The translations under genes were made by a program, and so were the position numbers. 64,000 nucleotides of DNA. It comes from an uncultured Cuneatibacter sp. (GTDB lineage Bacteria; Bacillota; Clostridia; Lachnospirales; Lachnospiraceae). The notes beneath the pieces were generated by a model. The model did not search any database, had not been told where the DNA came from, and saw only the letters and a program-made list of their open reading frames with translations. Shown here piece by piece: positions 22,319 through 61,714 of this stretch (positions are counted from its first letter, which is position 1; every line of letters starts with the position of its first letter). The stretch is taken from positions 22,077 to 86,076 of the forward strand of contig CAKQHB010000003.1 of the NCBI GenBank assembly GCA_934234215.1. Reading direction: 5' to 3'.

Positions 22319-22735
22319 TTAAATTAAGTCGCTGTCACCGGAGGTTTTGATGTCCTGCACTGCGGCATCGACATCGGGATCTTCGTCTTTGCCGGTGAAT
22401 TTATTGATGATGTCCGGCACGATGTCTAACAGACGACTGACAGAATCCCGGTCTTTGATGTTGATGACACGGGTGGTGCCGTCTTTCATAACAAGAACTG
22501 CGGACGGGGAGATCTTGCCGGTCACGCCGCCTGCACCGCTGTTCTTGCCGGGCTTTGTGAATGCGCCTGCGCCCATGCCGAACTGCACATCTGCCAACGG
22601 CAGAATGGTCGCATCTTTCACGGTGATCGGCTCACCCACAACGGTCTTTGTGGACAGATACAGGTTCAGATTTTTCATCAGAGTCTCTACTGTCTCATTC
22701 AAGGTCAATTTTTCTTTTTCCATTGCTTCCTCCAT
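22319..22735 (-). CDS. ytfJ: Sporulation protein YtfJ (GerW family)
   Basis: PLADVQFGMGAGAF...GAGGVTGKISPSAVLVMKDG matches the GerW/YtfJ family. Confidence 0.85.
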   Translation of the reverse strand: MEEAMEKEKLTLNETVETLMKNLNLYLSTKTVVGEPITVKDATILPLADVQFGMGAGAFTKPGKNSGAGGVTGKISPSAVLVMKDGTTRVINIKDRDSVSRLLDIVPDIINKFTGKDEDPDVDAAVQDIKTSGDSDLI

Positions 22736-48926: not shown

Positions 48927-48997
48927 AGGGGAATAGTTCAATGGCAGAGCAACGGTCTCCAAAACCGTTAATGGGAGTTCGAATCTCTCTTCCCCTG
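48927..48997 (+). tRNA. tRNA-Trp (anticodon CCA)
   Basis: Hand-folded cloverleaf. Acceptor AGGGGAA/TTCCCCT, anticodon stem ACGGT/ACCGT with loop CTCCAAA, T-arm GGGAG-TTCGAAT-CTCTC, discriminator G. Close to the B. subtilis tRNA-Trp sequence. The 3' CCA is not encoded. Confidence 0.85.
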
Positions 48998-49264: not shown

Positions 49265-50647
49265 TTATTTTTTCTCTTTTTTCAAATACTGCAGCACTTC
49301 ACTGAGATTTTTTACACCGACACAGTGCATCCCCTTGGGAATATCCAGTCCTTCCAGTGCTACCTGCGGTGCAATGCAAGTAGAAAATCCCAGCTTTGAA
49401 GCTTCCTGCAATCTCTTCGCACACTGACTGACGCTTCGCACTTCGCCGGAAATACCAACTTCTCCGAATGCCATCGTGTGTTCGTCCACTTCAATATCCA
49501 GATAGCTGGAAATCAGTGCGATCACGATTGCCAGATCCATAGACGGCTCGGATACCCGCATACCGCCAGTGACATTGACATAGGCATCACACTGCCCCAG
49601 AGATAGGTGCAGGCGTTTTTCCAGCACTGCCATGAGCAGGTTCACACGGTTATAATCCGTGCCGACTGCAGTTCGTCTCGGCATGCCAAAGTTTGTCCGG
49701 CATACAAGTGCCTGTACTTCCATCAGGATCGGCCTCGTTCCCTCCACGGAACAGGACACAACCGAACCGGATGCATGCTCCGGTCTTCCCTGCAGCAGAT
49801 ATGCCGAAGGGTTTTCCACCTCCCGCAGACCGGTATTCTGCATCTCAAAGACACCAATCTCGTTTGTGGATCCAAAACGGTTCTTTACGGCACGCAGGAT
49901 ACGATAAGAAGCACTGCGGTCGCCCTCAAAGTACAGAACTGTATCTACCATATGTTCCAGAACACGGGGACCTGCCACCATGCCCTCTTTCGTCACATGA
50001 CCAACCAGAAATGTGGCAATACCCTCTCCCTTTGCCAACTGGAGCAGCTGATTCGTACACTCCCGCACCTGTCCGACACTGCCCGGAGCCGAAGAAATAT
50101 CCTCCCGAAACATTGTCTGAATGGAATCAATAACAACAAGATCCGGCTTTTGCTCCCGGATCGTCTCCGAGATCGTATCCAGATTTGTCTCGCACAGCAG
50201 ATACAATCCCTCTTCGAATTCGCCCATACGGTCTGCACGCATCTTAATCTGCCGTTTGGACTCCTCGCCGGAAATATATAAGACCTTTTTACCGGAAGAA
50301 ACGAGATTCCGACACATCTGCAGCAAAATCGTGGATTTTCCAATGCCGGGATCTCCGCCGATCAGTACAAGAGATGCCGGGACAATTCCGCCTCCCAGCA
50401 CACGATCCATCTCTAAAATCCCGCTGGAAAAGCGAGGCTCCTCCTCAGTGGAAATCTCCCGAAGTCGTACCGGAATTCTTTTTTCCCGGCTCTCTGCAGC
50501 GGACAGCTTTCTGCCCTTCCCGGAAGACTTCGGTGCAGTCGGTTCTTCTACCAGCGTATTCCAGTTTTTGCAGCTGGGGCATTGCCCCAGCCACTTTGGT
50601 GTTTCATATCCGCATTCTTTACAGAAAAAGACGCTGGTGCTCTTCAT
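49265..50647 (-). CDS. radA: DNA repair protein RadA/Sms
   Basis: N-terminal zinc finger CKECGYETPKWLGQCPSC, RecA-like Walker A GDPGIGKST and Lon-like C-terminal domain. Confidence 0.92.
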   Translation of the reverse strand: MKSTSVFFCKECGYETPKWLGQCPSCKNWNTLVEEPTAPKSSGKGRKLSAAESREKRIPVRLREISTEEEPRFSSGILEMDRVLGGGIVPASLVLIGGDPGIGKSTILLQMCRNLVSSGKKVLYISGEESKRQIKMRADRMGEFEEGLYLLCETNLDTISETIREQKPDLVVIDSIQTMFREDISSAPGSVGQVRECTNQLLQLAKGEGIATFLVGHVTKEGMVAGPRVLEHMVDTVLYFEGDRSASYRILRAVKNRFGSTNEIGVFEMQNTGLREVENPSAYLLQGRPEHASGSVVSCSVEGTRPILMEVQALVCRTNFGMPRRTAVGTDYNRVNLLMAVLEKRLHLSLGQCDAYVNVTGGMRVSEPSMDLAIVIALISSYLDIEVDEHTMAFGEVGISGEVRSVSQCAKRLQEASKLGFSTCIAPQVALEGLDIPKGMHCVGVKNLSEVLQYLKKEKK

Positions 50648-53115
50648 TCAGCCTCCTTTGCAGGCTCCGGACAAAACTCGATGGCGCCATCCTTTGCATC
50701 GATCCGAACATCCATACCCTTTTGAATGTTGCCAACAAGGATCTCTTCTGCCAAACGATCCTCGATGAGATTTTGGATCACACGGCGCAACGGTCTTGCA
50801 CCATATTTTTCATCGTAGCCCTTTTCAATCAGAATCTCCTTCGCCGCATCGGTAATCTGCATCGTCAGCTCCATCTGCTCAGAAGCTCTCTTCTCGATCG
50901 TCTTCATCATAATCACAACAATCTCGCTGATGTTCTCCTTTGTCAGCGGATGGAAAACGATCGTCTCATCGATACGATTCAGAAACTCCGGCTTGAATGT
51001 CTGCTGAACCTCTTCCATGACGCGGCTCTTCATAAACTCGTAATCCTGCTTCGGTGCATCTGCCACAGTGCCAAAACCAAGACGCTTCTGTGTCAGGATG
51101 TTGGCAGCACCACAGTTTGATGTCATAATAATGACGGTATTTTTAAAGTCGATGCGACGTCCCTGAGAATCGGTGATCTGTCCATCGTCCAATACCTGCA
51201 GCAAAATATTAAACACATCCGGATGCGCCTTCTCGATTTCATCAAACAGTAAAATCGAGTACGGATTTCTCCGAACTTTTTCGCTGAGCTGACCACCCTC
51301 CTCATAACCGACATATCCGGGCGGAGAACCGATGAGCTTGCTGACGCTGTGCTTCTCCATATATTCCGACATGTCAACACGAATAATTGCATTTTCCGAG
51401 CCAAACATTGCTTCTGCCAATGCCTTTGACAGCTCTGTTTTGCCGACACCGGTAGGTCCAAGGAACAGAAAGCTGCCGATGGGACGCTTCGGATCCTTCA
51501 ATCCGACACGACCTCTGCGAATTGCCTTTGCAACGGCTGCGACTGCGGCATCCTGTCCAATAACTCTCTTATGCAAGATTTCTTCCAGATGGCGCAGACG
51601 CTCTGCTTCTCCCTCTTCCAGACTCTTGACTGGAATTCGCGTCCAGTCAGAGACAACTTCTGCAATCTGCTCGACACCAACGATGGGACAACTGTTTTTC
51701 TTTTCTTCTTCCCACTGCATCGTGCGAACCTGAATCTCCTGCTTTTTTTCCTGCTGGAGACGTTTGATCTCACCGGCACGCTCATATGCCTCAGCGCTGA
51801 TTGCCTGCTCTTTTTCTTTTTCCAGATCCTGTACTTCTTTTTCCAGATCTTTGATATCTGCCGGTGTAACATACGTCGTCAGACGTACTTTGGACGATGC
51901 CTCATCAATCAGGTCGATGGCTTTGTCCGGCAGAAAACGATCGTTGATATAGCGGGCAGACAGGGAAACAGCTGCCTCCAGTGCTTCATCTGTGATTGTA
52001 ACTTTGTGATGCTCCTCATAAGCGCCCCGCAGTCCGCGAAGAATCTCTACTGCCTCTTCCGCAGACGGTTCCTCCACCATGACCGGCTGGAAACGACGCT
52101 CCAGAGCGGCATCCTTTTCGATGTGCTTGCGGTATTCCTGAATGGTTGTTGCACCGATGATCTGAATCTCACCGCGGGCAAGCGCTGGTTTCAAGATATT
52201 GGAAGCATCCATCGCGCCCTCTGCGCCGCCGGCACCGATGATCGTATGCAGCTCATCAATAAACAACAGGACACCGCCATCATTTCGCACTTCGTTGATG
52301 ACGGTCTTGATCCGTTCCTCGAACTCACCACGGTACTTAGAACCTGCCACCATGCCGGACAGATCCAGCGTCACCAGTCTTTTTCCGGAGATCGTCTCCG
52401 GGATGTTCCCCTCCACGATCCGCGCCGCAAGACCCTCTGCAATGGCAGTCTTACCGACGCCGGGTTCTCCGATCAGACAGGGATTGTTCTTCGTACGGCG
52501 GCTCAAAATCTGAATGACGCGCGTGATTTCCGTCTCTCTGCCAATGACCGGATCAAGCTTTCCCTCTTTTGCCATCGCAGTCAGATCTCTGCCATACTGA
52601 TCCAGTGTGGGCGTGGAACTGTTCTTATTAGAGCCCTTGGGGGCAGAATTTTTCATCTCCTCCCGCACAGACGCGGCATCCTGTCCGCTGCTGACATACA
52701 GATCCAGATACATCTTTCGGATATCGACATTCAGTGTATTCAACAGGCGGATCGCACCGCAATCCGGCTCCTTCAAAATCGCAACAAGAATGTGCTCCGT
52801 TCCGATCAGCGGAGATCTCGTATGCAATGCCTCTTTATAGCTGTTTTCCAACACGCGGCGTGCCTTCGGAGTATATCCCTCCGGATCGGCAATTCCAACT
52901 GCTGCGTTCTGCGTCATGAACTGCTGGATCAACTGGAAGACACGCTCCTCGCTGATGCCGTGATTGTCCAGGACTCTGGCGGCAACACCGGTTCCCTCCT
53001 GAATCAGGCCAATCAGAAGGTGCTCTGTCCCGACAAGAGGATGTCCCAGAGATTCTGCGGCATCCACAGCCAGCGACAGGGCATCTTTTGCTTTATTCGT
53101 AAAACGATCTGTCAT
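50644..53115 (-). CDS. clpC: ATP-dependent Clp protease ATP-binding subunit ClpC
   Basis: Clp_N repeats, two AAA+ modules ([16 protein letters not shown]) and a UVR motif. 823 aa. Confidence 0.95.
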
Positions 53116-53119
53116 AAAT

Positions 53120-54163
53120 TCACTCTTCCTCCTTGCACTCCGGAAGATGCTTCCGGATATATTCCGCCCGATAGCGGTTCTGCTCCTCCTCGCTCATCTC
53201 CCGATGATACATCGTCTGGAGCGATGCACTCTGGCAGCACTGCATCATCTGAAACAGCGAAACCGGTGTTTCAAACTGAATCAATCCCAACGTTGCGCCA
53301 AGCCGCAGCTTGGATAAATAATGCAGGGCATCCTTGATCGTCAGAGAGCGGGCATAGCGCAGCAATCCATATGCGCGATAGGTCTGATCTTCTCTGGCAT
53401 CCTTCTGATTCTGCATCGCCAGCTCCCGCAGTTTTTTCTCCTGCTCCAGAATCCTGCGTCCGATTTTATTCAGTACCGCAATCAAATCCTCCTCGGACTG
53501 CCCCAGTGTCTTTTGATTATAGATTACATACATATCTCCGTAGGCTTCCCCATCAGAGCCGAATGCCTGCTTCATCACGATTCCGAACCGGCTAACCTCC
53601 TGCATCGTAGCGGAAAATCGCTTACTGCCGGAAAGGAGCGGCAGATGCAGCAGCAAATATGCCCGCATGCCAGTACCAAGATGTGTCGGATATGTCGTCA
53701 TATATCCGAACTTCGGATCAAAAGCATATTCGTATTTTTCGTTGATCTGATCGTCCAGTCGATCTGCCTGCGCCCATGCTCCTTCCAGATTCAGGCCACT
53801 GCAGCTGACTTGCAGGCGAATATGATCCTCTCCATTAAAAATCAAGCCGACAGACTCATCCTTGGAAAGCATCATGGACATCGGGTGCGTGTTCTCCGCA
53901 ATTCCATGACTGATGAGCTGCCGCTCCTGAAGCGCCATCCGCGCCCGGTCGCTGAGTTGCTGCAGATCCATCGTATCGTAATCCAACCCGGTGGTCGTCT
54001 GCAGGCAGGCAAAAGAACTTTCCAACTGCTGATCCAGAGTTGCCAGGTCTTCATCTGTCATCTTTACCGGAAACAGGTATCCCTTCAGGTTTCGCTGTAA
54101 ACGTACACGACTGGCAACAACGATATCATCGTCAGCGCCTTCTCTCTCGTACCATTTAAGCAT
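53120..54163 (-). CDS. mcsB: Protein arginine kinase McsB
   Basis: ATP:guanido phosphotransferase domain with a CPxNxGT-like motif. Position between mcsA and clpC. Confidence 0.85.
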   Translation of the reverse strand: MLKWYEREGADDDIVVASRVRLQRNLKGYLFPVKMTDEDLATLDQQLESSFACLQTTTGLDYDTMDLQQLSDRARMALQERQLISHGIAENTHPMSMMLSKDESVGLIFNGEDHIRLQVSCSGLNLEGAWAQADRLDDQINEKYEYAFDPKFGYMTTYPTHLGTGMRAYLLLHLPLLSGSKRFSATMQEVSRFGIVMKQAFGSDGEAYGDMYVIYNQKTLGQSEEDLIAVLNKIGRRILEQEKKLRELAMQNQKDAREDQTYRAYGLLRYARSLTIKDALHYLSKLRLGATLGLIQFETPVSLFQMMQCCQSASLQTMYHREMSEEEQNRYRAEYIRKHLPECKEEE

Positions 54164-54704
54164 CAATACCCTCCTCCTGCAGCTTCCGGATCTCATCCCG
54201 GTATCGCGCCGCTTCTTCATATTCTTCTTCGGAGATGGCCTCCTGCAGACGGGATCGCAGCACAGCTAAGCGATCCTCCATCGTCTCCTGAGGTGCACCG
54301 GCAGCAGAACCATCTTCGGTCTGCGTCTCCGTCTGATAACGGGGATGCTTTCCCACATGAGTATCACTGCCCTGCAGCTTCTTAATGTTGCTGCTCATCA
54401 AAATGCTGAAGGTATCATAACAGTCCGGGCAGCCAAACTGACTGTCCCGTACAAACTCTCCATAACTCATACCACAGGTAGGGCATACGATCTGGTCATA
54501 ATTCTCTTTCTCTTCGGTCTGGTCGTCTCCGTTTAATCCAAGAATACCGGACAGCAGCTTTCCAAACGGAAAATCATCGAAAAGCTGTGCCAGCTCTGTC
54601 TCTTGTGCACATGCCGAACAGAGGTTATGCTCATGCACAACTCCGTTGACAACTTCTTTTATTACAATATTTGCTTCCCTTTCATGGCAGCGTTCACATA
54701 ACAT
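54156..54704 (-). CDS. mcsA: Arginine kinase activator McsA (zinc-finger pairs plus UVR motif)
   Basis: Cys pairs CERCHE...CSAC and CPTCG...CPDC. C-terminal EEYEEAARYRDEIRKL is a UvrB/C-type motif. Confidence 0.85.
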   Translation of the reverse strand: MLCERCHEREANIVIKEVVNGVVHEHNLCSACAQETELAQLFDDFPFGKLLSGILGLNGDDQTEEKENYDQIVCPTCGMSYGEFVRDSQFGCPDCYDTFSILMSSNIKKLQGSDTHVGKHPRYQTETQTEDGSAAGAPQETMEDRLAVLRSRLQEAISEEEYEEAARYRDEIRKLQEEGIDA

Positions 54705-54727
54705 GATCTCTCACTCTCCTACTCTCG

Positions 54728-55099
54728 TCAGCCACAATAATCATCATACATCTCTTCTACCAGTGCGATCATCTCTTCTTTCGTGACCGAACGGCATCGC
54801 GCCTTTGCAAGAATCACACGAAGATCTCTCCGCAGCTCCTGAATCGTCTGGAGCTTATCCGCATCCAGTGCGATCACAGCACCTTTTCTGCGGTCGATCT
54901 TGACAAAGCCCTCCTGACGCAGCATCGCATATGCCTTATTTACTGTATGCATATTGATGCCGATACTGTCCGCCAGCTGGCGAACAGATGGAAGGGAGTC
55001 TCCCTCCTGAATCTCATCCGAGGCAATGCCCAGAATTACACGGTTGCAGATCTGCAAATATAAGGCTTCATCACTGTTAAAATCTATTTCCCAAAGCAT
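54728..55099 (-). CDS. Short GntR-family (YtrA-like) transcriptional regulator in the position normally held by CtsR
   Basis: Winged HTH GDSLPSVRQLADSIGINMHTVNKAYAMLRQEGFV. Lies 23 nt upstream of mcsA, which has a GGAGAG RBS. Confidence 0.75.
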   Translation of the reverse strand: MLWEIDFNSDEALYLQICNRVILGIASDEIQEGDSLPSVRQLADSIGINMHTVNKAYAMLRQEGFVKIDRRKGAVIALDADKLQTIQELRRDLRVILAKARCRSVTKEEMIALVEEMYDDYCG

Positions 55100-55204
55100 G
55101 GTATACCAACCCCTTACACGATTGTTATATATATTCTATAACAAAAGTCGAAATTAAGCAAGCGAATTTTCAAGAAAATCGAACGTATGTTTTTAAACAA
55201 CAAA

Positions 55205-55245
55205 ACAGACGCGTCTCCCACCGGGAAAAGCGTCTGTCTGTCCAT
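55205..55245 (-). terminator. Intrinsic terminator ending the cohesin/GH73 operon
   Basis: On the minus strand: cagacgc...gcgtctg stem followed by a T-rich tract, directly after the 55259 stop. Confidence 0.55.
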
Positions 55246-55258
55246 TTCTTTTTAACGG

Positions 55259-56995
55259 TTAGTCTCCTTTTTTATCCAAGTCGATGACTTCCATATCATC
55301 CTCTTCTTTTGTCGTAGGCGTGTCTTTCGGAGTTTCCGATGCGAAATCAATCACTTCCTCTTCTTCCGGGACGATCGGTGCTGCATCAACCTCTTCGAAA
55401 AGATCTTCCGGCTGATCTACCTCTGTTTCCGGTTCCGAAGTCTCCTCGCTGTTAGAAGGTTCTTCCGCGAGATAGTCCACTGGCTCTGCTGCCCGCAGTT
55501 CATCCAGCTCGTCTTCCAGATCATCCTGTTTCTTCTTTGCACGAAGCAGCAGGATCTGTACTGCGATAAAGCCAATTAATAAGGCAATCGTCAAAACAAG
55601 GAAAATGGTCATCAGGAGACGATTCCGAAATACCTGCTGATCTTTCTCCGCAAGCTCTTTTTCATGTGCTGTCTGCAAAGCATCCAACTCTTCCTGCGAA
55701 TCTCCGTCACTCACATAGCGGAAAAAGCTGCCGCTTTCCGCATCGTAGCGATACCACTGTGCATCGCCTGCGGCATTCATTCCATAGACAAGATAAAGAT
55801 TTTCGTCGGAATCCTCTTTCTGGTAAGCGATGATCGTCTTTCCATTTACCTCAAGCTCGACTGTATTGTAACCCTCTGGAACCGTTTCTTCCGCAGGCAA
55901 GGCCAGAAATACAAGGCTGTCTTCCGGCTGGTTTGCTGTCACATAAGGATATGCTTTCTTTTCAGCTTCATCCCAGATATAAAAAGCTCCATTTTTGCCA
56001 GACTCATCAGTCAGGTAAACAAGAACCAAACCTCTGGAATCTTTTGCAGCTGCAATCGAGCCCTTCTCCAATACAAGCTTTTCTTCCTTGAAATTTTTCG
56101 GCAGTTCAATTCCGGAAAGAGAATCTACACCATACAACGTGGAGCCGTTTTCCAACTGTACCGGAACCTTTTCCTGTTTCGCTTCAGTCTCGGTCTCACT
56201 CTCTGTCTCCGAACCGGACTCTGTTGTGCTGGATTCTGCAGAGGAAGAGCTTGCCGCTACAGAAGAAGACGGTGCCTCCGAAGAAGCAACAGCTGCTGCC
56301 GCGCGAACAACACAGATTGGGTAATCTCTTGCAGTCGCACCGTCCATCGCAACAACATGAATGTTAAACCAGTTTTCACCGGGCTGTAAGCTATCAAAAG
56401 GACCGCTGACAGACACCGTACCATAGGAAGCACGGGCATCTACTGCAAAGTTGGTAACGCCACTATCTGCATTTAGCCTCCAACTGCCAGCTGACGGATC
56501 TAACTGTCCCAAAGAAGTGTTCAGAAAGCTCAGAGAAACGTCACTGTAGCCTTCCGGTGGCTGTACAGGTGCCGGATTTTGTACAGTGATAGCAGAACTT
56601 GCAGACGCAGTACCATTATCGCCATCCATATATCCGATTACAACATCACCGAGACGAAAACTAGCAGTTCCCTGTGCTTTCGAAGTAAATGTGTAAGAAA
56701 AGCTTTTTGTTGCGGCAGTATTATCCGTCTCTAAAATCTGAATCATGCCACTGCCACCATCGGGGCCAGTTACAATACCACTGTCATAATACAGGTTCAT
56801 CTGGCAGATCATTTCTTTCGGAGTGCTCAGAGTAACCGTAACGGTAAAACTTTCTCCAACTGCTACCTGAGATGCACTCACGCTGATGGAAGCGCTGCCG
56901 TTTGTTTCTGCATGGCTCTGCATTGCGGGAGCCGCGGTTAAGACACAGATTACCGTCAGAAGCATCGCCATTATTTTTCTGTAGGAAATTTTCAT
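55259..56995 (-). CDS. Type-I membrane protein with cohesin-like domain, cadherin-like beta-sandwich, Ser/Glu linker, conserved membrane-proximal domain, TM and acidic cytoplasmic tail
   Basis: Signal peptide. SISVSASQVAVGESFTVTVTL...NLYYDSGIV is a cohesin-like pattern. SLSFLNTSLGQLDP...ARDYPICVVR is a cadherin-like beta-sandwich (Lachnospiraceae type). TM IFLVLTIALLIGFIAVQILLL. Paralog of 59061-60710. Confidence 0.65.
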   Translation of the reverse strand: MKISYRKIMAMLLTVICVLTAAPAMQSHAETNGSASISVSASQVAVGESFTVTVTLSTPKEMICQMNLYYDSGIVTGPDGGSGMIQILETDNTAATKSFSYTFTSKAQGTASFRLGDVVIGYMDGDNGTASASSAITVQNPAPVQPPEGYSDVSLSFLNTSLGQLDPSAGSWRLNADSGVTNFAVDARASYGTVSVSGPFDSLQPGENWFNIHVVAMDGATARDYPICVVRAAAAVASSEAPSSSVAASSSSAESSTTESGSETESETETEAKQEKVPVQLENGSTLYGVDSLSGIELPKNFKEEKLVLEKGSIAAAKDSRGLVLVYLTDESGKNGAFYIWDEAEKKAYPYVTANQPEDSLVFLALPAEETVPEGYNTVELEVNGKTIIAYQKEDSDENLYLVYGMNAAGDAQWYRYDAESGSFFRYVSDGDSQEELDALQTAHEKELAEKDQQVFRNRLLMTIFLVLTIALLIGFIAVQILLLRAKKKQDDLEDELDELRAAEPVDYLAEEPSNSEETSEPETEVDQPEDLFEEVDAAPIVPEEEEVIDFASETPKDTPTTKEEDDMEVIDLDKKGD

Positions 56996-57016
56996 CTTTT
57001 TAATTTTATCCTTCCT

Positions 57017-59032
57017 TTATTTCTGCGGTACCTTTGCCGTACCCATGATATCGCGCTTGATCGGGACGATATCCAAGACGTTAATCGTTCCATTACGATC
57101 CAGATCACCGGCTGCTTTTTGCAATGCGGTCAGCGTCTGTGTGCCAAGAATCTGCCGCTTCTGCATTACAATATCCAAAACATTCAGAACGCCGTCTCCG
57201 TTCAGATCACCGCGAATGACAACCCTATATTCGTACTTCGTCTGTCCATCTTCGATAGCACGAATGATCTGACCGGTCTTCATCTTCTCGGAATCACCAA
57301 GCTGCGTCTTGCCATCGGAAGAGAAAAACTGAATCGTACAGTTCGTACCGACAATCAGAGACTTGGCATCTTTTATGGTAGAACCGACGGTAAAGCCATT
57401 AATAAATTTACTGGATTCGTCCACATTCAATGTCTGAGAGAATGTGATCTTGCTCTCCTTGTTGCCAGGATCTGGAGTTGGTGTCGGGGTTGGATCTGGC
57501 TCCAATGCCTTCTCCCGATTAATGACGATCGTATATGTCCGGCTCACTCCGGTCTCCGATGTCACAACAACCGGAACTGTGTTATTACCCACATTCAGAT
57601 TCACATAAGTTGCCACTGCGGCATTATTATCCGACTGCAGCTTCTGTCCGGCAATGGTGATAGAGGCTGTCCGGTCAAATGCCTGCGCATCGATTCGAAT
57701 GCTGCTGTAGGAGTTCGGAACAACGGTGGAATAGGATGTCTGATCTACTCCAAAGGTACCGATGGAATATTGTCCGCCTGCAACTGCCAGGCCCTTGAGC
57801 TTGTAGTTCGGATTGCCGTCTCCGGTAGGCTTTGCACACAGGGTTTGCGGCATGTTCCGATAAACCGGGATGACAAATTGAAATGCGGTGGTGCTGATAA
57901 CACCGTTTGCATCTGCATCGGATGCTAATCCGATATTTTTCAGAGTGTTGTATGTATTGCGAGACTCAGACTCCGCACTGAAAACAGCGGTCATATACGG
58001 CAGATACGTCACAACGCCGGAGTTATTGGCAACAACATTGTACTTCAACAGATACGGCGTGTTTCTTCCATTATTTACATAACGGGTCGTGTACTTTTTC
58101 GCACCGCCGAGAAGTGCTTTGTATGGGCTGTTCCAGCCACAATTTTTTGCCTCAGTCAAACCGTTTTTATAGATTTCTTCGTTATTCTTGCCGGTGGCGT
58201 TCATATTAAAGTAGTTGTAATAGCCTTTGAATTCGTTGTTATAATTTCCGGAAATCAGAGGATTATTACCATTTACGCCCTGCTCCATACGGACACGGTT
58301 TGCCAGCGCCAGTGCGCTGACACCCAGCTCTTTTGCCAGACGGCAGAATATCTCGGCATAGGTCATCTCTATCGTCTCATAATTCGATTTCGCATCGGAG
58401 ACCTTGCCATTATTATCTACGGTTATATCTGAAAAGTTTTTCGGTGCAGTCAGCTTCGTTCCTTTGTTGCTGCTATAATCATAGTACATGAACGTACCTT
58501 TCAGCGCAGCATTGATTGTATCGACATTATCTACCGACTCATTATAGGATGTACTCAGAAAGCTGAAAATACCGGTTTCAGTCAGGAAGTTTCGCGGGTC
58601 TACGTAATACTGAATCAGCTTTTCAGAAGCTTGCGTCCAGCCGCCCTCCTGTACTGCCCACTCATTCTGAGTGAAGATAAAGGCATTATTAAATTCAACT
58701 CCCTTATAAGAACTGGGGTAATTGTACTGCCCGGAACTGTTTTTGGAATTCGGGATTGTACAGCGGTATGGATAATAAAAAGAATCGGCCTGGAACAGTG
58801 CACTCCATTCCAGCCCGGTATCGTAGTAAACGAAGCTGGCATTGGGATATGCACGCTTGACTGCATTCAGTCCTGCCTGATAGCTGGAAGGAAACTCGCC
58901 AATCTGAGCGACCCAGCGGGACTGTGTCACCGCTGCATAGCTCTTTTTCATAAAATTTCCGTCCAGCGCCACGAGACACACCGTCATCGCGACGCACACC
59001 AACATTGCCACGCTTCGTTTAATATATTTCAT
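57017..59032 (-). CDS. Secreted GH73 N-acetylglucosaminidase (peptidoglycan hydrolase) with cadherin-like beta-sandwich and C-terminal type-I dockerin
   Basis: Signal peptide MKYIKRSVAMLVCVAMTV. GH73-like LGVSALALANRVRMEQGVNGNNPLISGNYN...YYNYFN. Two dockerin calcium loops, DLNGDGVLNVLD and DLDRNGTINVLD. AGGGGAG RBS. Confidence 0.7.
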   Translation of the reverse strand: MKYIKRSVAMLVCVAMTVCLVALDGNFMKKSYAAVTQSRWVAQIGEFPSSYQAGLNAVKRAYPNASFVYYDTGLEWSALFQADSFYYPYRCTIPNSKNSSGQYNYPSSYKGVEFNNAFIFTQNEWAVQEGGWTQASEKLIQYYVDPRNFLTETGIFSFLSTSYNESVDNVDTINAALKGTFMYYDYSSNKGTKLTAPKNFSDITVDNNGKVSDAKSNYETIEMTYAEIFCRLAKELGVSALALANRVRMEQGVNGNNPLISGNYNNEFKGYYNYFNMNATGKNNEEIYKNGLTEAKNCGWNSPYKALLGGAKKYTTRYVNNGRNTPYLLKYNVVANNSGVVTYLPYMTAVFSAESESRNTYNTLKNIGLASDADANGVISTTAFQFVIPVYRNMPQTLCAKPTGDGNPNYKLKGLAVAGGQYSIGTFGVDQTSYSTVVPNSYSSIRIDAQAFDRTASITIAGQKLQSDNNAAVATYVNLNVGNNTVPVVVTSETGVSRTYTIVINREKALEPDPTPTPTPDPGNKESKITFSQTLNVDESSKFINGFTVGSTIKDAKSLIVGTNCTIQFFSSDGKTQLGDSEKMKTGQIIRAIEDGQTKYEYRVVIRGDLNGDGVLNVLDIVMQKRQILGTQTLTALQKAAGDLDRNGTINVLDIVPIKRDIMGTAKVPQK

Positions 59033-59060
59033 GTTCTCCCCTAACTTTTGTTGCTTTGTC

Positions 59061-60710
59061 TTACTTCTCCCGATTCTTCTTAACACGGTCCGCATCAACG
59101 CGAGTCGTCATGTCACTGACACGGCTGCGATTCACGGTCGGCTTTTCCGGTCTGGCGCTTCTGGCTCTTTTGACTTCGGAAGCCGGAATGGAAGCAGTCT
59201 TGCTGCCATATCTGCTAACTTCGCGCTCAATACCCTCTTCCATCACCTGAATATCGACACCGAAAACTTCTTCCTCAGAATCCTCGTCGTCATCCTCATC
59301 TTCCTTGTCTTCTAGGACATCTTCATAGGTGTCTTCTTCGGAATCCGAATCATCCTCGTCTTCTGTCATCCAGGAATCTACGTCCTCTTCTTCATCATCC
59401 TCAGATTCTTCATAAGATTCGTAAGTATCCTCCGATGCGTCCCTATCACGCTGTCTTCTGTCAGAAGATGCCTGAAGCTCTCTGACCTGTCTCTTTCTGT
59501 GGTGAACGCGATGGGCAAGGATGATATTGATTGCCAGCAGGATCACGATGATCACACCACCGATAATCATATATAAAAGAGCGTCTCCAGCACCGGATAA
59601 CACTGCGCCGGTCTGTACATACGGGAAAATCACACCGTCTGATTCGCGGAACCAGCAAAGTCCCGGATCTCCGCCATTTTCACCGGCATAGATCAGGTAC
59701 AGACCTTCATGCTCCTCACTGGTGTAAGCCGGTACTTCGTACTCGCCGATCTTTACCGTCGTATACACATAGCTCTTCGGAATGGAAATTCCACCGGGGA
59801 ATGTTGTAACGTGGAACTGTCTTGCCTCTACGGTCCAGTCAAAGCCCTCTACACCGTCAGCGCTGAGAGATTCCGTCTCAGCCGTCTCCTCACCGGATGC
59901 GGCACGGATGACATGAATCGTGTATTCCTGAAAACCGCCATCATCTGCGGTGACATGTACGGTTACGAGATTCTCCCCTTCCTGAAGGTTGTCCATACCC
60001 TCTACAACATAGGTTGCCTTGTCCGACTCGGTTGCAGCGTGAACAGCAATTTTTGTGACATCGTTTGCAACGTGTACGGTATATTCCTTTACGGAAGGAT
60101 CAAAGGTGATGGAGCCCGGCTCTATCTCTAATGTGCTCAGCTTGCAGGAGATACTCTCTTCCTCAGATGCGGATTCTGTCTCCTGAGATGATCCACTGTT
60201 TTCTTCGGAGGACTCCGCCTGAGAAGACTCTGCCTGAGACTCAGAGGATCCGGCAGCTACGGTAACAGCAGCACTGGGATTTGCAATATTGATACCATCC
60301 AAAGCCTGCTCGTTCTCATCGGTTGCTGTAACATCCGATAAGGTAAAGGTACAGGTGCCATCTTTTAAGGCAGTCATGGTGAATGTCTCTTCGTAGGTGC
60401 TGTAGCCAACTGCGCCGGACTTCCATGTAATCTTGCCGGCGGGGAAAATATCCTTATATTTATCCGGCAGCTGGAACATCGAACCGTCATACTGCAAGGT
60501 ATAACCAACCGGACCAAGTGTGGTATCGGCTTTGATCACAACCGATACATCCACGGTATCGCCCTGCTTTACCTCTGTCTGAGATACCGATACACTAGCT
60601 TCGGCGGATGCCGCCTTGACCTGCATCGGAACTGTCATGCACAGAACCATTGCCAGCATACAGAATACTGCACTGATTCTCTTCCAACTGCGTACTTTCA
60701 TTTTTTTCAT
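59061..60710 (-). CDS. Type-I membrane protein with cohesin-like and cadherin-like domains, TM and long acidic cytoplasmic tail (paralog of 55259-56995)
   Basis: SVSVSQTEVKQGDTVDVSVVIKADTTLGPVGYTLQYDGSMFQL is a cohesin-like pattern. The membrane-proximal domain aligns with its paralog (LYLIYAGENGGDPGLCWFRESDGVIFPYV versus LYLVYGMNAAGDAQWYRYDAESGSFFRYV). TM LLYMIIGGVIIVILLAINIILA. Confidence 0.65.
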   Translation of the reverse strand: MKKMKVRSWKRISAVFCMLAMVLCMTVPMQVKAASAEASVSVSQTEVKQGDTVDVSVVIKADTTLGPVGYTLQYDGSMFQLPDKYKDIFPAGKITWKSGAVGYSTYEETFTMTALKDGTCTFTLSDVTATDENEQALDGINIANPSAAVTVAAGSSESQAESSQAESSEENSGSSQETESASEEESISCKLSTLEIEPGSITFDPSVKEYTVHVANDVTKIAVHAATESDKATYVVEGMDNLQEGENLVTVHVTADDGGFQEYTIHVIRAASGEETAETESLSADGVEGFDWTVEARQFHVTTFPGGISIPKSYVYTTVKIGEYEVPAYTSEEHEGLYLIYAGENGGDPGLCWFRESDGVIFPYVQTGAVLSGAGDALLYMIIGGVIIVILLAINIILAHRVHHRKRQVRELQASSDRRQRDRDASEDTYESYEESEDDEEEDVDSWMTEDEDDSDSEEDTYEDVLEDKEDEDDDEDSEEEVFGVDIQVMEEGIEREVSRYGSKTASIPASEVKRARSARPEKPTVNRSRVSDMTTRVDADRVKKNREK

Positions 60711-60877
60711 GTTTGTCTCCTCATTTTCTTCTGATCTGTATCAAAATGCCCCACCAAGCTTTTTCATTTTGGTTTTGACACGTTTTTCAATCTGTAAAAA
60801 CAACTGTTATTATAATTCGTCTGCAGTTTGTGTGTCAACCGTTCCCGACAAATTTCCTATTATTTCCGCGACGGGAC

Positions 60878-60914: not shown

Positions 60915-61013
60915 AGCAGATGCTGGGGGAGCCTGAAAAGGCTGAGAAATGAAAGTTGACCCTTATTACTTGAACCGGGTAATGCCGGCGTAAGGAAGCG
61001 CTCTTTTCTTTCA
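60915..61013 (+). ncRNA. TPP (THI-box) riboswitch
   Basis: Conserved motifs CTGGGGGAGCC...GGCTGAGA...ACCCTT...GAACC...AATGCCGGCG...AGGAAG. Confidence 0.85.
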
Positions 61014-61048: not shown

Positions 61049-61714
61049 ATGTTCTTTTACTTTGACGACGGGTATTATTACCCTACCACCGCAGGTACGA
61101 TCCTGCTCGTTGCACTTTTGCTTGTTGCCGTTGTTCTTGCAGTAATCGTTGCATCGAAAAACAGTGACCACAAGACCTTTTCTGCAAAGAAGCTGGTCTT
61201 CTCCGGAATGGCGATCGCGATAGCGTATGTTCTCTCGTTCATTCAGGTCATCAAGCTTCCTTATGGAGGTGCGGTCACTCCGTTTTCCATGCTGTTTATT
61301 TGTCTGATCGGATATTGGTACGGTGTCAAAGCCGGCTTACTGACAGGCTTTGCGTACAGCATTCTGCAGTTTTTGCAGGACCCGTACATTCTGACTCCGT
61401 TTCAGGTTTGCTGTGACTACTTCTTCGCCTTTACCGCACTGGGTCTGTCCGGACTGTTCTCCGGCAAAAAACACGGACTGCAGATTGGCTACCTGGTAGG
61501 TGTTCTCGCTCGTCTGTTTTTCCATGTTCTCGGCGGATACATTTACTGGATGGAATACATGCCGGAGAACTTCCCGGTAGCCTTGAAGTGGGCTTACCCG
61601 GTTATTTACAATGGTTCTTATATCGGTCTGGAAGCAGTCATCACACTGATTCTGCTGGCAATTCCCGCCGTGGACAAAGCGATGAAGCGTGTCAAGACGA
61701 TGGCATTAAACTGA
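61049..61714 (+). CDS. thiT: ECF-type thiamine transporter S-component ThiT (YuaJ-like)
   Basis: A polytopic membrane protein of about 220 aa downstream of a TPP riboswitch. Confidence 0.7.
   Translation: MFFYFDDGYYYPTTAGTILLVALLLVAVVLAVIVASKNSDHKTFSAKKLVFSGMAIAIAYVLSFIQVIKLPYGGAVTPFSMLFICLIGYWYGVKAGLLTGFAYSILQFLQDPYILTPFQVCCDYFFAFTALGLSGLFSGKKHGLQIGYLVGVLARLFFHVLGGYIYWMEYMPENFPVALKWAYPVIYNGSYIGLEAVITLILLAIPAVDKAMKRVKTMALN

Follow-up and report, generated by a model that had tools for sequence, protein, structure and literature searches.

The window, a 64,000-nucleotide stretch of an uncultured Cuneatibacter sp. genome (contig CAKQHB010000003.1), carries a gene for a dockerin-bearing peptidoglycan hydrolase between two genes for membrane proteins with cohesin-like N termini. 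Does this locus encode a cohesin-dockerin system that holds a wall-cutting enzyme on the surface of the cell that makes it? Here, we report the layout, domain content and conservation of the locus, and weigh tethering against the alternatives.

Gene layout and domain architecture

All features lie on the reverse strand (Table 1). The start of gene B was taken as the ATG beginning MKYIKRS; a longer TTG-start open reading frame from 59098 was regarded as mechanical and set aside. A first-pass annotation of the same DNA had described three tightly packed genes with a terminator after the last one alone. Open reading frame coordinates bear out the packing, with gaps of 28 nt (A-B) and 21 nt (B-C) and a purine-rich ribosome-binding site in each. 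So do the folding results for the terminator: the hairpin at 55239..55195 was the sole strong hairpin with a U-run, and 0/200 shuffles folded equally well. The three-gene locus is real and its layout operon-like.

Table 1. Features of the hydrolase-anchor locus (window positions; aa, amino acids of the product)
Feature	Position	Strand	Details
Putative promoter 5' of gene A	60809..60838	-	TTGACA-18 nt-TATAAT; 12/12 consensus positions; consensus match alone
Gene A, upstream anchor paralog	60710..59061	-	549 aa
A, signal-like segment		-	aa 1-33
A, cohesin-like module, then Ser/Glu linker	60240..60611	-	aa 34-157; Pfam Cohesin 9e-4, 19.9 bits, sub-threshold; part of profile A1, which matched cohesin structures
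A, Cadherin-like	59904..60137	-	aa 192-269; Pfam PF12733 1.5e-11, exceeds cut-off
A, partial membrane-proximal domain		-	aa 290-366
A, transmembrane span		-	aa 378-399
A, cytoplasmic tail	59064..59513	-	aa 400-549; acidic then basic
A, tail segment VFGVDIQVMEEGIEREV	59217-59267	-	common to A-type orthologs
Gene B, dockerin-bearing GH73 hydrolase	59032..57017	-	671 aa
B, signal-like segment		-	aa 1-33
B, N-terminal conserved region and GH73 domain		-	up to ~aa 400
B, GH73 catalytic region	57833..58645	-	family profile vs PDB; E250 codon 58283-58285
B, Cadherin-like		-	aa 426-507; Pfam 1.5e-14, exceeds curated cut-off
B, Pro/Thr linker		-	aa 511-522
B, uncharacterized domain		-	aa 526-603
B, type I dockerin	57047..57211	-	aa 608-662; Pfam Dockerin_1 (PF00404)
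B, calcium loop 1, DLNGDGVLNVLD	57173-57208	-	aa 609-620
B, calcium loop 2, DLDRNGTINVLD	57071-57106	-	aa 643-654
Gene C, conserved anchor	56995..55259	-	578 aa
C, signal-like segment		-	aa 1-29
C, cohesin-like module	56561..56908	-	aa 30-145; Pfam Cohesin 20.5 bits, sub-threshold
C, weak Cadherin-like		-	aa 146-235
C, Ser/Glu/Thr linker		-	aa 236-275
C, membrane-proximal all-beta domain	55712..56170	-	aa 276-428; two similar sub-repeats read by eye
C, transmembrane span		-	aa 460-484
C, acidic cytoplasmic tail	55262..55543	-	aa 485-578
C, tail terminal motif DD-MEVIDL-DKKGD	55277-55294	-	positions of MEVIDL
Terminator-like hairpin and U-run 3' of gene C	55195..55239	-	dG -26.7 kcal/mol, z -4.6
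gntR-type regulator (syntenic context)	55099..54728	-	
gntR-type regulator, mcsA, mcsB, clpC, radA (syntenic context)	49265..55099	-	

A and C, previously called type I membrane proteins, each begin with a hydrophobic signal-like segment and have one further hydrophobic span with basic residues behind it, in line with that topology. They are paralogs (28.5% identity over 270 aa; E, 1e-13), and the identical cluster mates of A are named [quoted passage not shown] at NCBI. The anchor ectodomain comprises three folded domains with linkers of ~30 to 50 residues. Both anchors had been credited with the same Cadherin-like and membrane-proximal domains. This stands for the Cadherin-like domain of A and the membrane-proximal domain of C (233.6 bits); the Cadherin-like match in C is weak (E, 0.078), and the membrane-proximal match in A is partial (24.7 bits).

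A GH73-family protein that carries a type I dockerin

Gene B is assigned to GH73 because its family profile matched solved GH73 structures (SagB, 2e-23; Atl glucosaminidase, 2e-22; AtlE, 2e-21) and because E250, invariant in 121 family sequences, aligned with the LxETG (LLETG/LVETG) glutamate of Atl, AtlE and SagB, a residue that we take to be the catalytic acid, as in AtlE and SagB. The profile also matched Clostridium perfringens Acp (2e-17), and the single sequence of B matched solved GH73 enzymes at 1e-7. The match to the NCBIfam SagB model ("peptidoglycan release complex glucosaminidase SagB"; 4.5e-8) was far under the equivalog cut-off. These comparisons agree with the earlier description of the middle protein as a secreted GH73 enzyme, one predicted to hydrolyze the GlcNAc-beta-1,4-MurNAc bond of peptidoglycan.

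Pfam searches had been proposed for Glucosaminidase, Dockerin_1, Cadherin-like and Cohesin, and gave a mixed outcome. Glucosaminidase (PF01832) found no match in B or in any of 21 relatives (0/21). Dockerin_1 and Cadherin-like matched B above their cut-offs, and Cohesin stayed below its own on both anchors.

Dockerin_1 scored 38.3 bits on B (E, 1.5e-9; curated cut-off, 22.9) and was matched by 21/21 hydrolase relatives scanned; the closest type I dockerins in the PDB were 2ccl_B (5.9e-10) and 1ohz_B (5e-9). Both calcium-loop strings quoted in the first-pass annotation are present at the C terminus, where the sequence fits two ~22-residue repeats, each a helix preceded by a 12-residue EF-hand-like loop (D-x-[DN]-x-[DN]-G...D). 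After each of the loops DLNGDGVLNVLD and DLDRNGTINVLD comes IV..KR..(L/M)G; in both repeats, as read from the sequence, V-L occupies loop positions 10 and 11 and K-R positions 17 and 18.

A cohesin-like module linked to the hydrolase

Neither anchor module reached the Pfam Cohesin (PF00963) cut-off of 24.1 (A, 19.9 bits; C, 20.5 bits, or 23.7 for the domain alone), and C exceeded the cut-off of the BatD/DUF11-like family (PF13584; 25.1 bits against 24.1). The structure model of the C module (117 aa; pLDDT, 91.8) has 8 DSSP strands, against 9 strands and ~140 aa in classical cohesins, which have a jelly-roll beta-sandwich fold and bind dockerins via the 8-3-6-5 sheet face. These results suit an alternative in which dockerins are not bound by the N-terminal domain, a generic beta-sandwich of Ig-like or BatD/DUF11-like type. 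The conserved adjacency would then have another cause: the membrane protein might regulate or inhibit the hydrolase, present substrate to it or sense the wall for it, and the dockerin would have a cohesin partner encoded elsewhere (the survey for other cohesins covered the 64-kb window) or serve purely as a calcium-stabilized module.

Against that alternative, cohesins ranked top for the anchor N-terminal domain by three independent methods. The anchor N-terminal profile matched mostly cohesins among solved structures (best, 3.8e-7), in alignments that span chiefly the N-terminal half. Modules of relatives do match Pfam Cohesin (best E, 4.2e-10), and precomputed PF00963 matches exist for two of them, P0134 and P0140, the latter a 47%-identical homolog of A. 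Across the family, Cohesin was matched at an E value of 1e-3 or lower by 28/72 anchors and BatD by 1/72. The one BatD match among the 72 is C itself, and we treat it as an idiosyncratic cross-match between beta-sandwich families. Profile and, for the C module, fold support the cohesin-like designation given to these domains at the outset.

Gene linkage also bears on the question. A set of 98 loci was grouped into 20 dereplicated lineages, in 18 of which the hydrolase stop coincides with, or is closely followed by, the start of a C-type anchor gene (this count takes in L018, whose anchor gene was called 19 nt past the hydrolase); the other two, L019 and L070, have a dockerin-hydrolase without an adjacent anchor. 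A search begun from two distant anchors (26 to 28% identity) found a dockerin-hydrolase directly upstream of both. The adjacency of hydrolase and anchor is near-obligate, and their expected co-occurrence in other genomes was borne out. Co-conservation of the whole triad was not, as the upstream anchor A was present in 2/15 evaluable lineages, confined to the closest relatives. The conserved unit is the pair of hydrolase and downstream anchor C, and A is a duplication. As judged by sequence, this pair recurs across many gut Clostridia.

The one anchor examined that lacks a cohesin-like module (P0133) has no hydrolase neighbor. With the catalytic domain controlled, dockerin distances co-varied with cohesin-like distances among lineages that are not independent (partial r, 0.27; reached by 10/2,000 permutations); in the same non-independent lineages, dockerin and membrane-proximal domain distances did not (r, -0.003). 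This specific co-variation of dockerin with cohesin-like module, together with the top-ranked cohesin matches, the family-wide counts and the cohesin-less anchor, makes a generic beta-sandwich unlikely. We consider it moderately probable that the locus encodes a cohesin-dockerin tether dedicated to a peptidoglycan hydrolase and separate from any cellulosome, the contact between the two modules being something we infer.

A cellulosome, with a multi-cohesin scaffoldin and many dockerin enzymes, was considered and rejected for the 64-kb window and the related loci. The window has a single dockerin and two membrane proteins with one cohesin-like module each, with no other dockerin-loop or cohesin-like open reading frame, and related loci show the same one-to-one pairing of hydrolase and anchor. 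The absence of cellulosome components nearby is as the first-pass annotation had it.

Proposed tethering, genomic setting and precedents

In the tethering mechanism, the product of B, a predicted GH73 N-acetylglucosaminidase that ends in a type I dockerin, would be exported via its signal peptide. With calcium, this dockerin would engage a single-pass membrane protein through the cohesin-like module that forms the outer tip of that protein. The protein would be the conserved anchor C and, in this lineage, paralog A too. The anchor stalk (Cadherin-like domain, disordered Ser/Glu linker and membrane-proximal domain) would keep the enzyme on the producing cell, so the module probably ties it to that cell's own membrane. 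Once docked, a catalytically active enzyme would cut the producer's own wall near the membrane rather than diffuse off.

The genomic setting bears on where such an enzyme would act. Usually, the module lies directly upstream of clpC-radA: clpC is within 5 kb downstream in 9/13 evaluable lineages, and in one abundant human-gut lineage the anchor gene is 5 nt from the clpC start. The position is kept even in the lineage with a cohesin-less anchor and no hydrolase neighbor. The module is single-copy and in conserved synteny with these core genes.

An outward-directed surface weapon or scavenger (a "lyticome") acting on competitors' walls or other GlcNAc-containing gut glycans, and not on the wall of the producer, would fit the published interpretation of dockerin-bearing lysozymes and carboxypeptidases in rumen metagenomes (PMC6487960), the "lyticome" proposal itself (PMC6403190), and the long anchor ectodomain, which could extend to the wall surface. 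We think this improbable, as the catalytic domain has its nearest relatives among the housekeeping autolysins of staphylococci and clostridia (SagB, Atl, AtlE and Acp), the single-copy module sits beside clpC-radA and not in a mobile or competition locus, and neither immunity-like genes nor multi-enzyme scaffoldins occur nearby.

A sporulation- or germination-specific role (cortex remodeling, engulfment or mother-cell lysis, with anchors in forespore or mother-cell membranes) would suit a member of the Clostridia, and some sporulation processes involve GH73 enzymes; the first-pass annotation had raised spore-cortex cleavage as one option, beside a septal role. An open reading frame at 22319-22735 also looks, by eye, like a YtfJ/GerW-type sporulation protein. 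Such a role is very improbable: the sole promoter-like element upstream is a perfect match of the vegetative sigma-70/sigma-A type, the neighbors are vegetative housekeeping genes (thiT and the clpC operon), and the module is present in a metagenome-assembled genome of Agathobacter, a genus not known to sporulate.

Tethering of this kind has partial precedents. Staphylococcus aureus SagB, the closest solved relative of the B catalytic domain, is a GH73 glucosaminidase that trims nascent glycan strands in a membrane complex with SpdC. There, as predicted here, a GH73 enzyme resides at the membrane together with a membrane protein partner, an arrangement that would limit cleavage to membrane-near peptidoglycan. 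SagB, however, is anchored in the membrane by its own N terminus, and SpdC is polytopic and CAAX-like, whereas here a soluble enzyme has a predicted dockerin tether to a bitopic protein, in an operon without an SpdC-like gene.

The C. perfringens complexes (NagJ/GH84C cohesin with NagH FIVAR-dockerin; NanJ GH33 cohesin; PDB 2ozn, 2jh2, 2w1n and 2vo8) likewise use cohesin and dockerin to assemble secreted glycoside hydrolases without a cellulosome. Their cohesins lie within other secreted enzymes and form enzyme-enzyme complexes against host glycans. In the present locus, the two genes are adjacent, the predicted cargo is a peptidoglycan hydrolase, and the cohesin-like module is the outermost part of a single-pass membrane protein that also has a cytoplasmic tail. 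Anchoring scaffoldins of cellulosomes and amylosomes (SdbA, OlpB and Orf2p, by SLH; ScaE or Sca2, by sortase; the single anchoring cohesin of Ruminococcus albus) resemble the proposed tether in that a cell-bound cohesin captures a dockerin enzyme on the producer surface (PMC5817068, PMC6118326, PMC4611034). They differ in wall attachment by SLH or sortase, against a transmembrane helix with a conserved cytoplasmic tail here; in cargo, since each cell usually displays many scaffoldins or enzymes that degrade polysaccharides, against one predicted GH73 cargo here; and in having no counterpart of the membrane-proximal domain.

The first-pass annotation knew of no characterized autolysin-anchoring cohesin pair. 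The system is indeed uncharacterized, but links between GH73, cohesins and dockerins have been published (PMC4611034, PMC4081043), and a "lyticome" has been proposed (PMC6403190). For R. albus, a published table lists GH73s that carry dockerins (PMC4081043). [quoted passage not shown] 2014); the likeness is by description, the mention being a one-sentence genome note without architecture, conservation or function. The system reported here is a real, widespread and uncharacterized variant of probable non-cellulosomal cohesin-dockerin tethering. New here are a membrane-proximal domain without a fold neighbor in the PDB, a conserved tail motif and the clpC-radA position.

Anchor tails and possible control from inside the cell

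The membrane-proximal domain of C has no Pfam entry and no PDB fold neighbor, and was found in at least 2,500 sequence clusters. Both cytoplasmic tails are acidic, as first described (A, 52 D+E in the 144 residues counted; C, 33 in 83), and bear different conserved motifs. The C-type motif (DD-ΦEΦΦDL) is C-terminal in 45/101 long-tailed representatives (shuffled tails: mean, 0.35; maximum, 3) and is also present in anchors from many loci. The A tail lacks it; its basic C-terminal segment, like VFGVDIQVMEEGIEREV, is common to A-type orthologs. The tail is not essential to the anchor family, because ~40/142 representatives have tails of <30 residues. Where present, the C-type and A-type motifs probably link the anchors to cytoplasmic partners that would set where, when or how much anchor is deployed.

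A further reading, speculative and rather unlikely, goes beyond a passive tether and makes the anchor a transmembrane adaptor, through which a system in the cytoplasm would be coupled to wall hydrolysis outside the cell. It draws on the conserved C-terminal tail motif, the different A-type tail module and the anchor position upstream of clpC-radA. FtsEX-PcsB, FtsEX-CwlO and FtsEX-EnvC, in which a peptidoglycan hydrolase outside the cell is under the control of a membrane component that also faces the cytoplasm, share this logic of transmembrane control, if the tails of the present anchors do signal; the present system differs in lacking an ABC transporter and a coiled-coil hydrolase, and is unrelated to them in sequence. 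Were the adaptor reading true, the tail would serve a cytoplasmic partner, possibly the ClpC machinery or a factor of division or elongation, as docking site or degron, the membrane-proximal domain would be a second functional element, e.g., a wall sensor, and the internal state of the cell would set the amount and place of autolysin docked outside.

Locus layout and flanking genes

The gene for the dockerin-bearing GH73 hydrolase (B) lies between two membrane-anchor genes, the upstream A and the downstream C (see the table). Translation of B was started at the ATG opening MKYIKRS; the longer TTG ORF of the mechanical list overlaps A. A and B are separated by 28 nt and B and C by 21 nt, with a purine-rich ribosome-binding site in either gap, and the hairpin with a U-run after C is the only strong one at the locus, as the first-pass annotation had described (spacing of 21 to 28 nt, a terminator behind the last gene only). 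This operon-like layout fits a single predicted A-B-C transcript.

Features of the window and their positions
Feature	Position	Strand and placement	Basis
A, upstream anchor	60710..59061	minus	ORF, 549 aa
A, cytoplasmic tail	59064-59513		
B, GH73 hydrolase	59032..57017	minus	ORF, 671 aa, from ATG opening MKYIKRS
B, domain at aa 526-603	57224-57457		
C, downstream anchor	56995..55259	minus	ORF, 578 aa
C, tail motif MEVIDL	55277-55294		
Promoter-like TTGACA-18-TATAAT	60838..60809	minus, upstream of A	consensus match (perfect)
Strong hairpin and U-run	55239..55195	minus, after C	dG -26.7 kcal/mol, z -4.6
TPP riboswitch	60915-61013	+, upstream of A	Rfam RF00059, 66 bits
221-aa membrane ORF, ThiT-like transporter	61049-61714	+, preceded by TPP riboswitch	
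GntR-type regulator, mcsA, mcsB, clpC, radA	49265-55099	minus, downstream of C	gene calls and profile matches
123-aa GntR-family (YtrA-like) regulator	54728-55099	opens the clpC operon	Pfam GntR 5.9e-13
tRNA gene	48927-48997	+	

The syntenic counterpart of the 221-aa membrane ORF in two related loci (L011 and L013) matches ECF_trnsprt/Thia_YuaJ, the S component of a thiamine transporter. First position in Bacillus-type clpC operons is occupied by ctsR; here it is held by the GntR-family regulator, which also precedes mcsA-mcsB-clpC in L001-L003 and L007-L009. Nearly every protein-coding gene of the window lies on the other strand from the tRNA gene. The sigma-70-type promoter-like site and the housekeeping neighbours weakly favour vegetative expression, which argues against a sporulation-specific role of the module (hydrolase plus anchor genes), a very improbable reading. 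A septal or spore-cortex role, floated in the first-pass annotation, is speculative.

Domains of the hydrolase and its anchors

B has a signal-peptide-like N-terminus. Of the Pfam families suggested as search models in the first-pass annotation, Cadherin-like (1.5e-14) and Dockerin_1 (1.5e-9) exceed their curated cut-offs in B, whereas Glucosaminidase (PF01832) matched neither B nor the 21 relatives scanned. The GH73 assignment therefore rests on matches of the B-family profile to PDB entries, namely, S. aureus SagB (2e-23), Atl glucosaminidase (2e-22), AtlE (2e-21), and C. perfringens Acp (2e-17). All 121 family sequences compared have E250, which in the alignment falls on the LxETG glutamate of Atl, AtlE, and SagB. 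The dockerin resembles solved type I dockerins (2ccl_B, 5.9e-10); its two loops, DLNGDGVLNVLD and DLDRNGTINVLD, are EF-hand-like. Read from the sequence, both of its repeats have V-L at positions 10-11 and K-R at positions 17-18, the classical contact sites, a symmetry typical of dual-binding-mode type I dockerins. B was thus correctly described at the outset as a secreted GH73 enzyme with a textbook type I dockerin, although of a divergent GH73 subfamily. The combination of Cadherin-like and Dockerin_1 domains, often with an added SH3_3, is common to hundreds of relatives, and human gut metagenomes supply many of the >14,000 sequences in a single hydrolase cluster. B also has, after the Pro/Thr linker and ahead of the dockerin, an uncharacterised domain of ~80 residues (aa 526-603) with no Pfam match, alignable in some relatives (L008, L009) and weakly matching the C. 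perfringens NagH FIVAR-dockerin (2jnk/2ozn; E 0.32 as a single sequence, 0.0028 as a profile).

The two anchors are paralogous, with 28.5% identity between A and C across 270 aa (E 1e-13). Each begins with a signal-like segment, has a single further hydrophobic span with basic residues behind it, and carries an acidic tail; NCBI labels A only as "cadherin-like beta sandwich domain-containing protein." The N-terminal domains alone fall just below the Pfam Cohesin cut-off in both anchors, and that of C falls just above the BatD cut-off. Across 72 family members (E≤1e-3), Cohesin matches 28 and BatD matches C alone; a BatD identity, not being common to the family, was set aside. A profile built from the N-terminal domains of A, C, and relatives retrieved mostly cohesins from the PDB (best 3.8e-7; C. 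perfringens NagJ cohesin included), in alignments spanning mainly the N-terminal half. When aa 29-145 of C were modelled with AlphaFold2 (117 aa, 8 DSSP strands; pLDDT 91.8), the top five Foldseek matches were all cohesins. The cohesins of C. perfringens toxin complexes, which are established non-cellulosomal cohesin-dockerin pairs, are the best structural matches. We conclude that the N-terminal module is a compact, predicted cohesin-like domain, modelled for C and scoring below formal Pfam Cohesin membership in A and C; the cohesin-like fold first proposed for both anchors is supported by the profile matches and, for C, by structure comparison. It seems rather unlikely that the domain is instead a generic beta-sandwich and that its gene adjoins the hydrolase through another relationship.

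Between the Cadherin-like domain and the transmembrane (TM) span, C has an all-beta membrane-proximal domain in which two similar sub-repeats are visible by eye. Its model is confident (pLDDT 89.4), and it has no Pfam match and no structural relative in a fold comparison against the PDB. The first-pass annotation had placed this conserved domain in both anchors, which holds for C (233.6 bits) but only partially for A (24.7 bits). Word-indexed searches gave only 14 relatives for the ectodomain of A and 16 for that of C; the extent of the family was seen through an exhaustive search with the membrane-proximal profile, in which the representatives of 2,507 clusters (50% identity) matched at E≤1e-3 and those of 1,438 at E≤1e-10. 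Among the best 150 matches, a TM span follows the domain in 143, and the cohesin-like N-terminal module is present in 78 of the 85 complete-looking sequences. The anchors thus form, by their architecture, a large and coherent family absent from domain databases.

Cytoplasmic tails were compared in the best family representatives, 101 of which have tails of ≥30 residues. A Φ-x-Φ-Φ-[DE]-Φ motif after acidic residues (e.g., DDLEFIDL, DDMEIMDLNDL; representatives within P0151-P0296) terminates 45 of these 101 (shuffled tails: mean, 0.35; maximum, 3). It ends the C tail (…EEDDMEVIDLDKKGD), and an acidic run with a Φ-E-Φ-Φ-D-L end recurs in the anchors of L004, L012, L015, L055, L066, L076, and L091. 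The tail is not a universal feature of the family, being very short in ~40 of 142 representatives. The tail of A is without the C-type terminal motif; A-type tails (P0140, P0141, L011 5304-6974, L013 1258-3075) share FG(I/V)DIQ(L/V)M..GIEKE, followed by the basic RPxKPxVN..R....TTR(I/V)D....NRE. These sequences suggest that A-type and C-type anchors probably have different cytoplasmic connections.

Conservation of the hydrolase-anchor pair and of the clpC neighbourhood

Exact look-ups of relatives, together with one scan of genomes and one of metagenomes, yielded 98 loci, which were scored with the cohesin-like and membrane-proximal profiles. The genome-contig scan (single-protein query) gave 4 loci, and the statistics rest on the alignment-based metagenome scan; as a few human-gut species dominate the latter's 80 loci, hydrolases were dereplicated at 70% identity, giving 20 lineages. 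In 18 of these, the start of an anchor gene coincides with the hydrolase stop or follows it closely; the exceptions are L019 and L070. Hydrolases of the two exceptions (L019 4974-8840, L070 4848-7649) continue for ~300 to 690 residues beyond the dockerin in a Cys-rich stretch that contains CxxC pairs and weakly matches a zinc ribbon; the idea that this extension is a fused cohesin was dropped, as neither Pfam nor the cohesin-like profile matched it. When two distant anchors (26 to 28% identity) were used as start points, a dockerin-hydrolase adjoined both. P0133, an anchor relative without the cohesin-like module (one lineage only), has no hydrolase neighbour and still lies upstream of clpC-radA. 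Across 16 pairs, dockerin and cohesin-like distances were correlated with the catalytic domain controlled (partial r 0.27; reached by 10 of 2,000 permutations), which is weak evidence given that the lineages are not independent; dockerin and membrane-proximal distances were uncorrelated (r -0.003).

The upstream A-type anchor occurs in 2 of 15 evaluable lineages, both the window's closest relatives. What is conserved is thus the pair, a local duplication having produced the triad. The arrangement is real, clearly more than chance would give, and was largely read correctly at first; co-conservation holds for hydrolase and adjoining anchor, and the triad was overstated.

Within 5 kb downstream of the module, clpC is found in 9 of 13 evaluable lineages, directly or via gntR-mcsA-mcsB (the window, L004-L006, L015, L020 and following). 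In one lineage abundant in human-gut samples, 5 nt separate the anchor stop from the clpC start; L014 and L016 are without this neighbourhood. In L099 and L100, loci of the lineage with the cohesin-less anchor, this anchor occupies the same place ahead of clpC-radA, with no adjoining hydrolase gene. The gene after radA in these loci (L099 8509-9764, L100 7569-8824) encodes a further wall hydrolase with a PcsB-type coiled coil and Hydrolase_2 (SleB-like). The module-clpC order may be inherited within Lachnospiraceae or may be functional. The recurrent adjacency may hint that proteostasis and wall turnover are connected; a more far-reaching and unlikely reading is that the anchor, by the conserved motif of its tail, ties hydrolysis of the wall outside the cell to a cytoplasmic system, possibly ClpC.

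A proposed tethered autolysin and its significance

The best-supported reading, which we hold to be moderately probable, is that B is held by its dockerin on C (plus A here) and acts on the producer's own wall. B would be secreted and would dock on the cohesin-like tip of a membrane anchor, C everywhere and additionally A in the window's lineage; the glucosaminidase would thereby be kept on the producer, cutting the peptidoglycan of that cell as far as the stalk reaches. The domain identities, the operon-like layout, and the adjacency of hydrolase and anchor are shown by the data; we infer the cohesin-dockerin contact, the activity and substrate of B, and any regulatory role of the tails. A complex of hydrolase and anchor that instead serves as an outward-directed lytic or scavenging device is distinctly unlikely. 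For the tethered enzyme, the nearest functional analogy is S. aureus SagB, which operates at the membrane with SpdC, trimming glycan strands; by analogy with Acp or Atl, B could equally act in daughter-cell separation.

Cohesins that serve as cell-surface anchors are established parts of cellulosome and amylosome systems, where they are attached by SLH domains or sortase (PMC5817068, PMC4611034), unlike the predicted transmembrane anchoring of A and C. Genome surveys have recorded wall hydrolases with dockerins (PMC4081043, PMC6487960), and PMC6403190 put forward the notion of a 'lyticome'. The single cohesin and dockerin of Ruminococcus bicirculans have been noted in connection with a GH73 enzyme (PMC4611034). 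A full-text literature search found no characterised pairing of a GH73 dockerin enzyme with a transmembrane cohesin anchor, and no description of the membrane-proximal domain or the tail motif. The claim of no precedent made in the first-pass annotation was too strong. The module, widespread in gut Clostridia and uncharacterised, is probably a non-cellulosomal cohesin-dockerin system for tethering an autolysin via a transmembrane anchor.

To our knowledge, only a few model species have shown how a Gram-positive cell can have active wall-cutting enzymes of its own and take no harm from them; for Lachnospiraceae, which are dominant in the human colon, this is hardly understood at all. The locus exposes two unstudied elements, a confidently folded extracellular domain without a PDB relative and a conserved cytoplasmic C-terminal peptide, and the signature domain of the anchors marks out no fewer than 2,500 clusters (50% identity). 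As a natural one-to-one cohesin-dockerin pair, the module may serve surface display in gut commensals. If the tethering reading is true, these bacteria would have a new solution, in which the plug-and-socket pair of the cellulosome keeps a GH73 autolysin on a membrane stalk, and the reach of cohesin-dockerin pairs would extend into wall remodelling.
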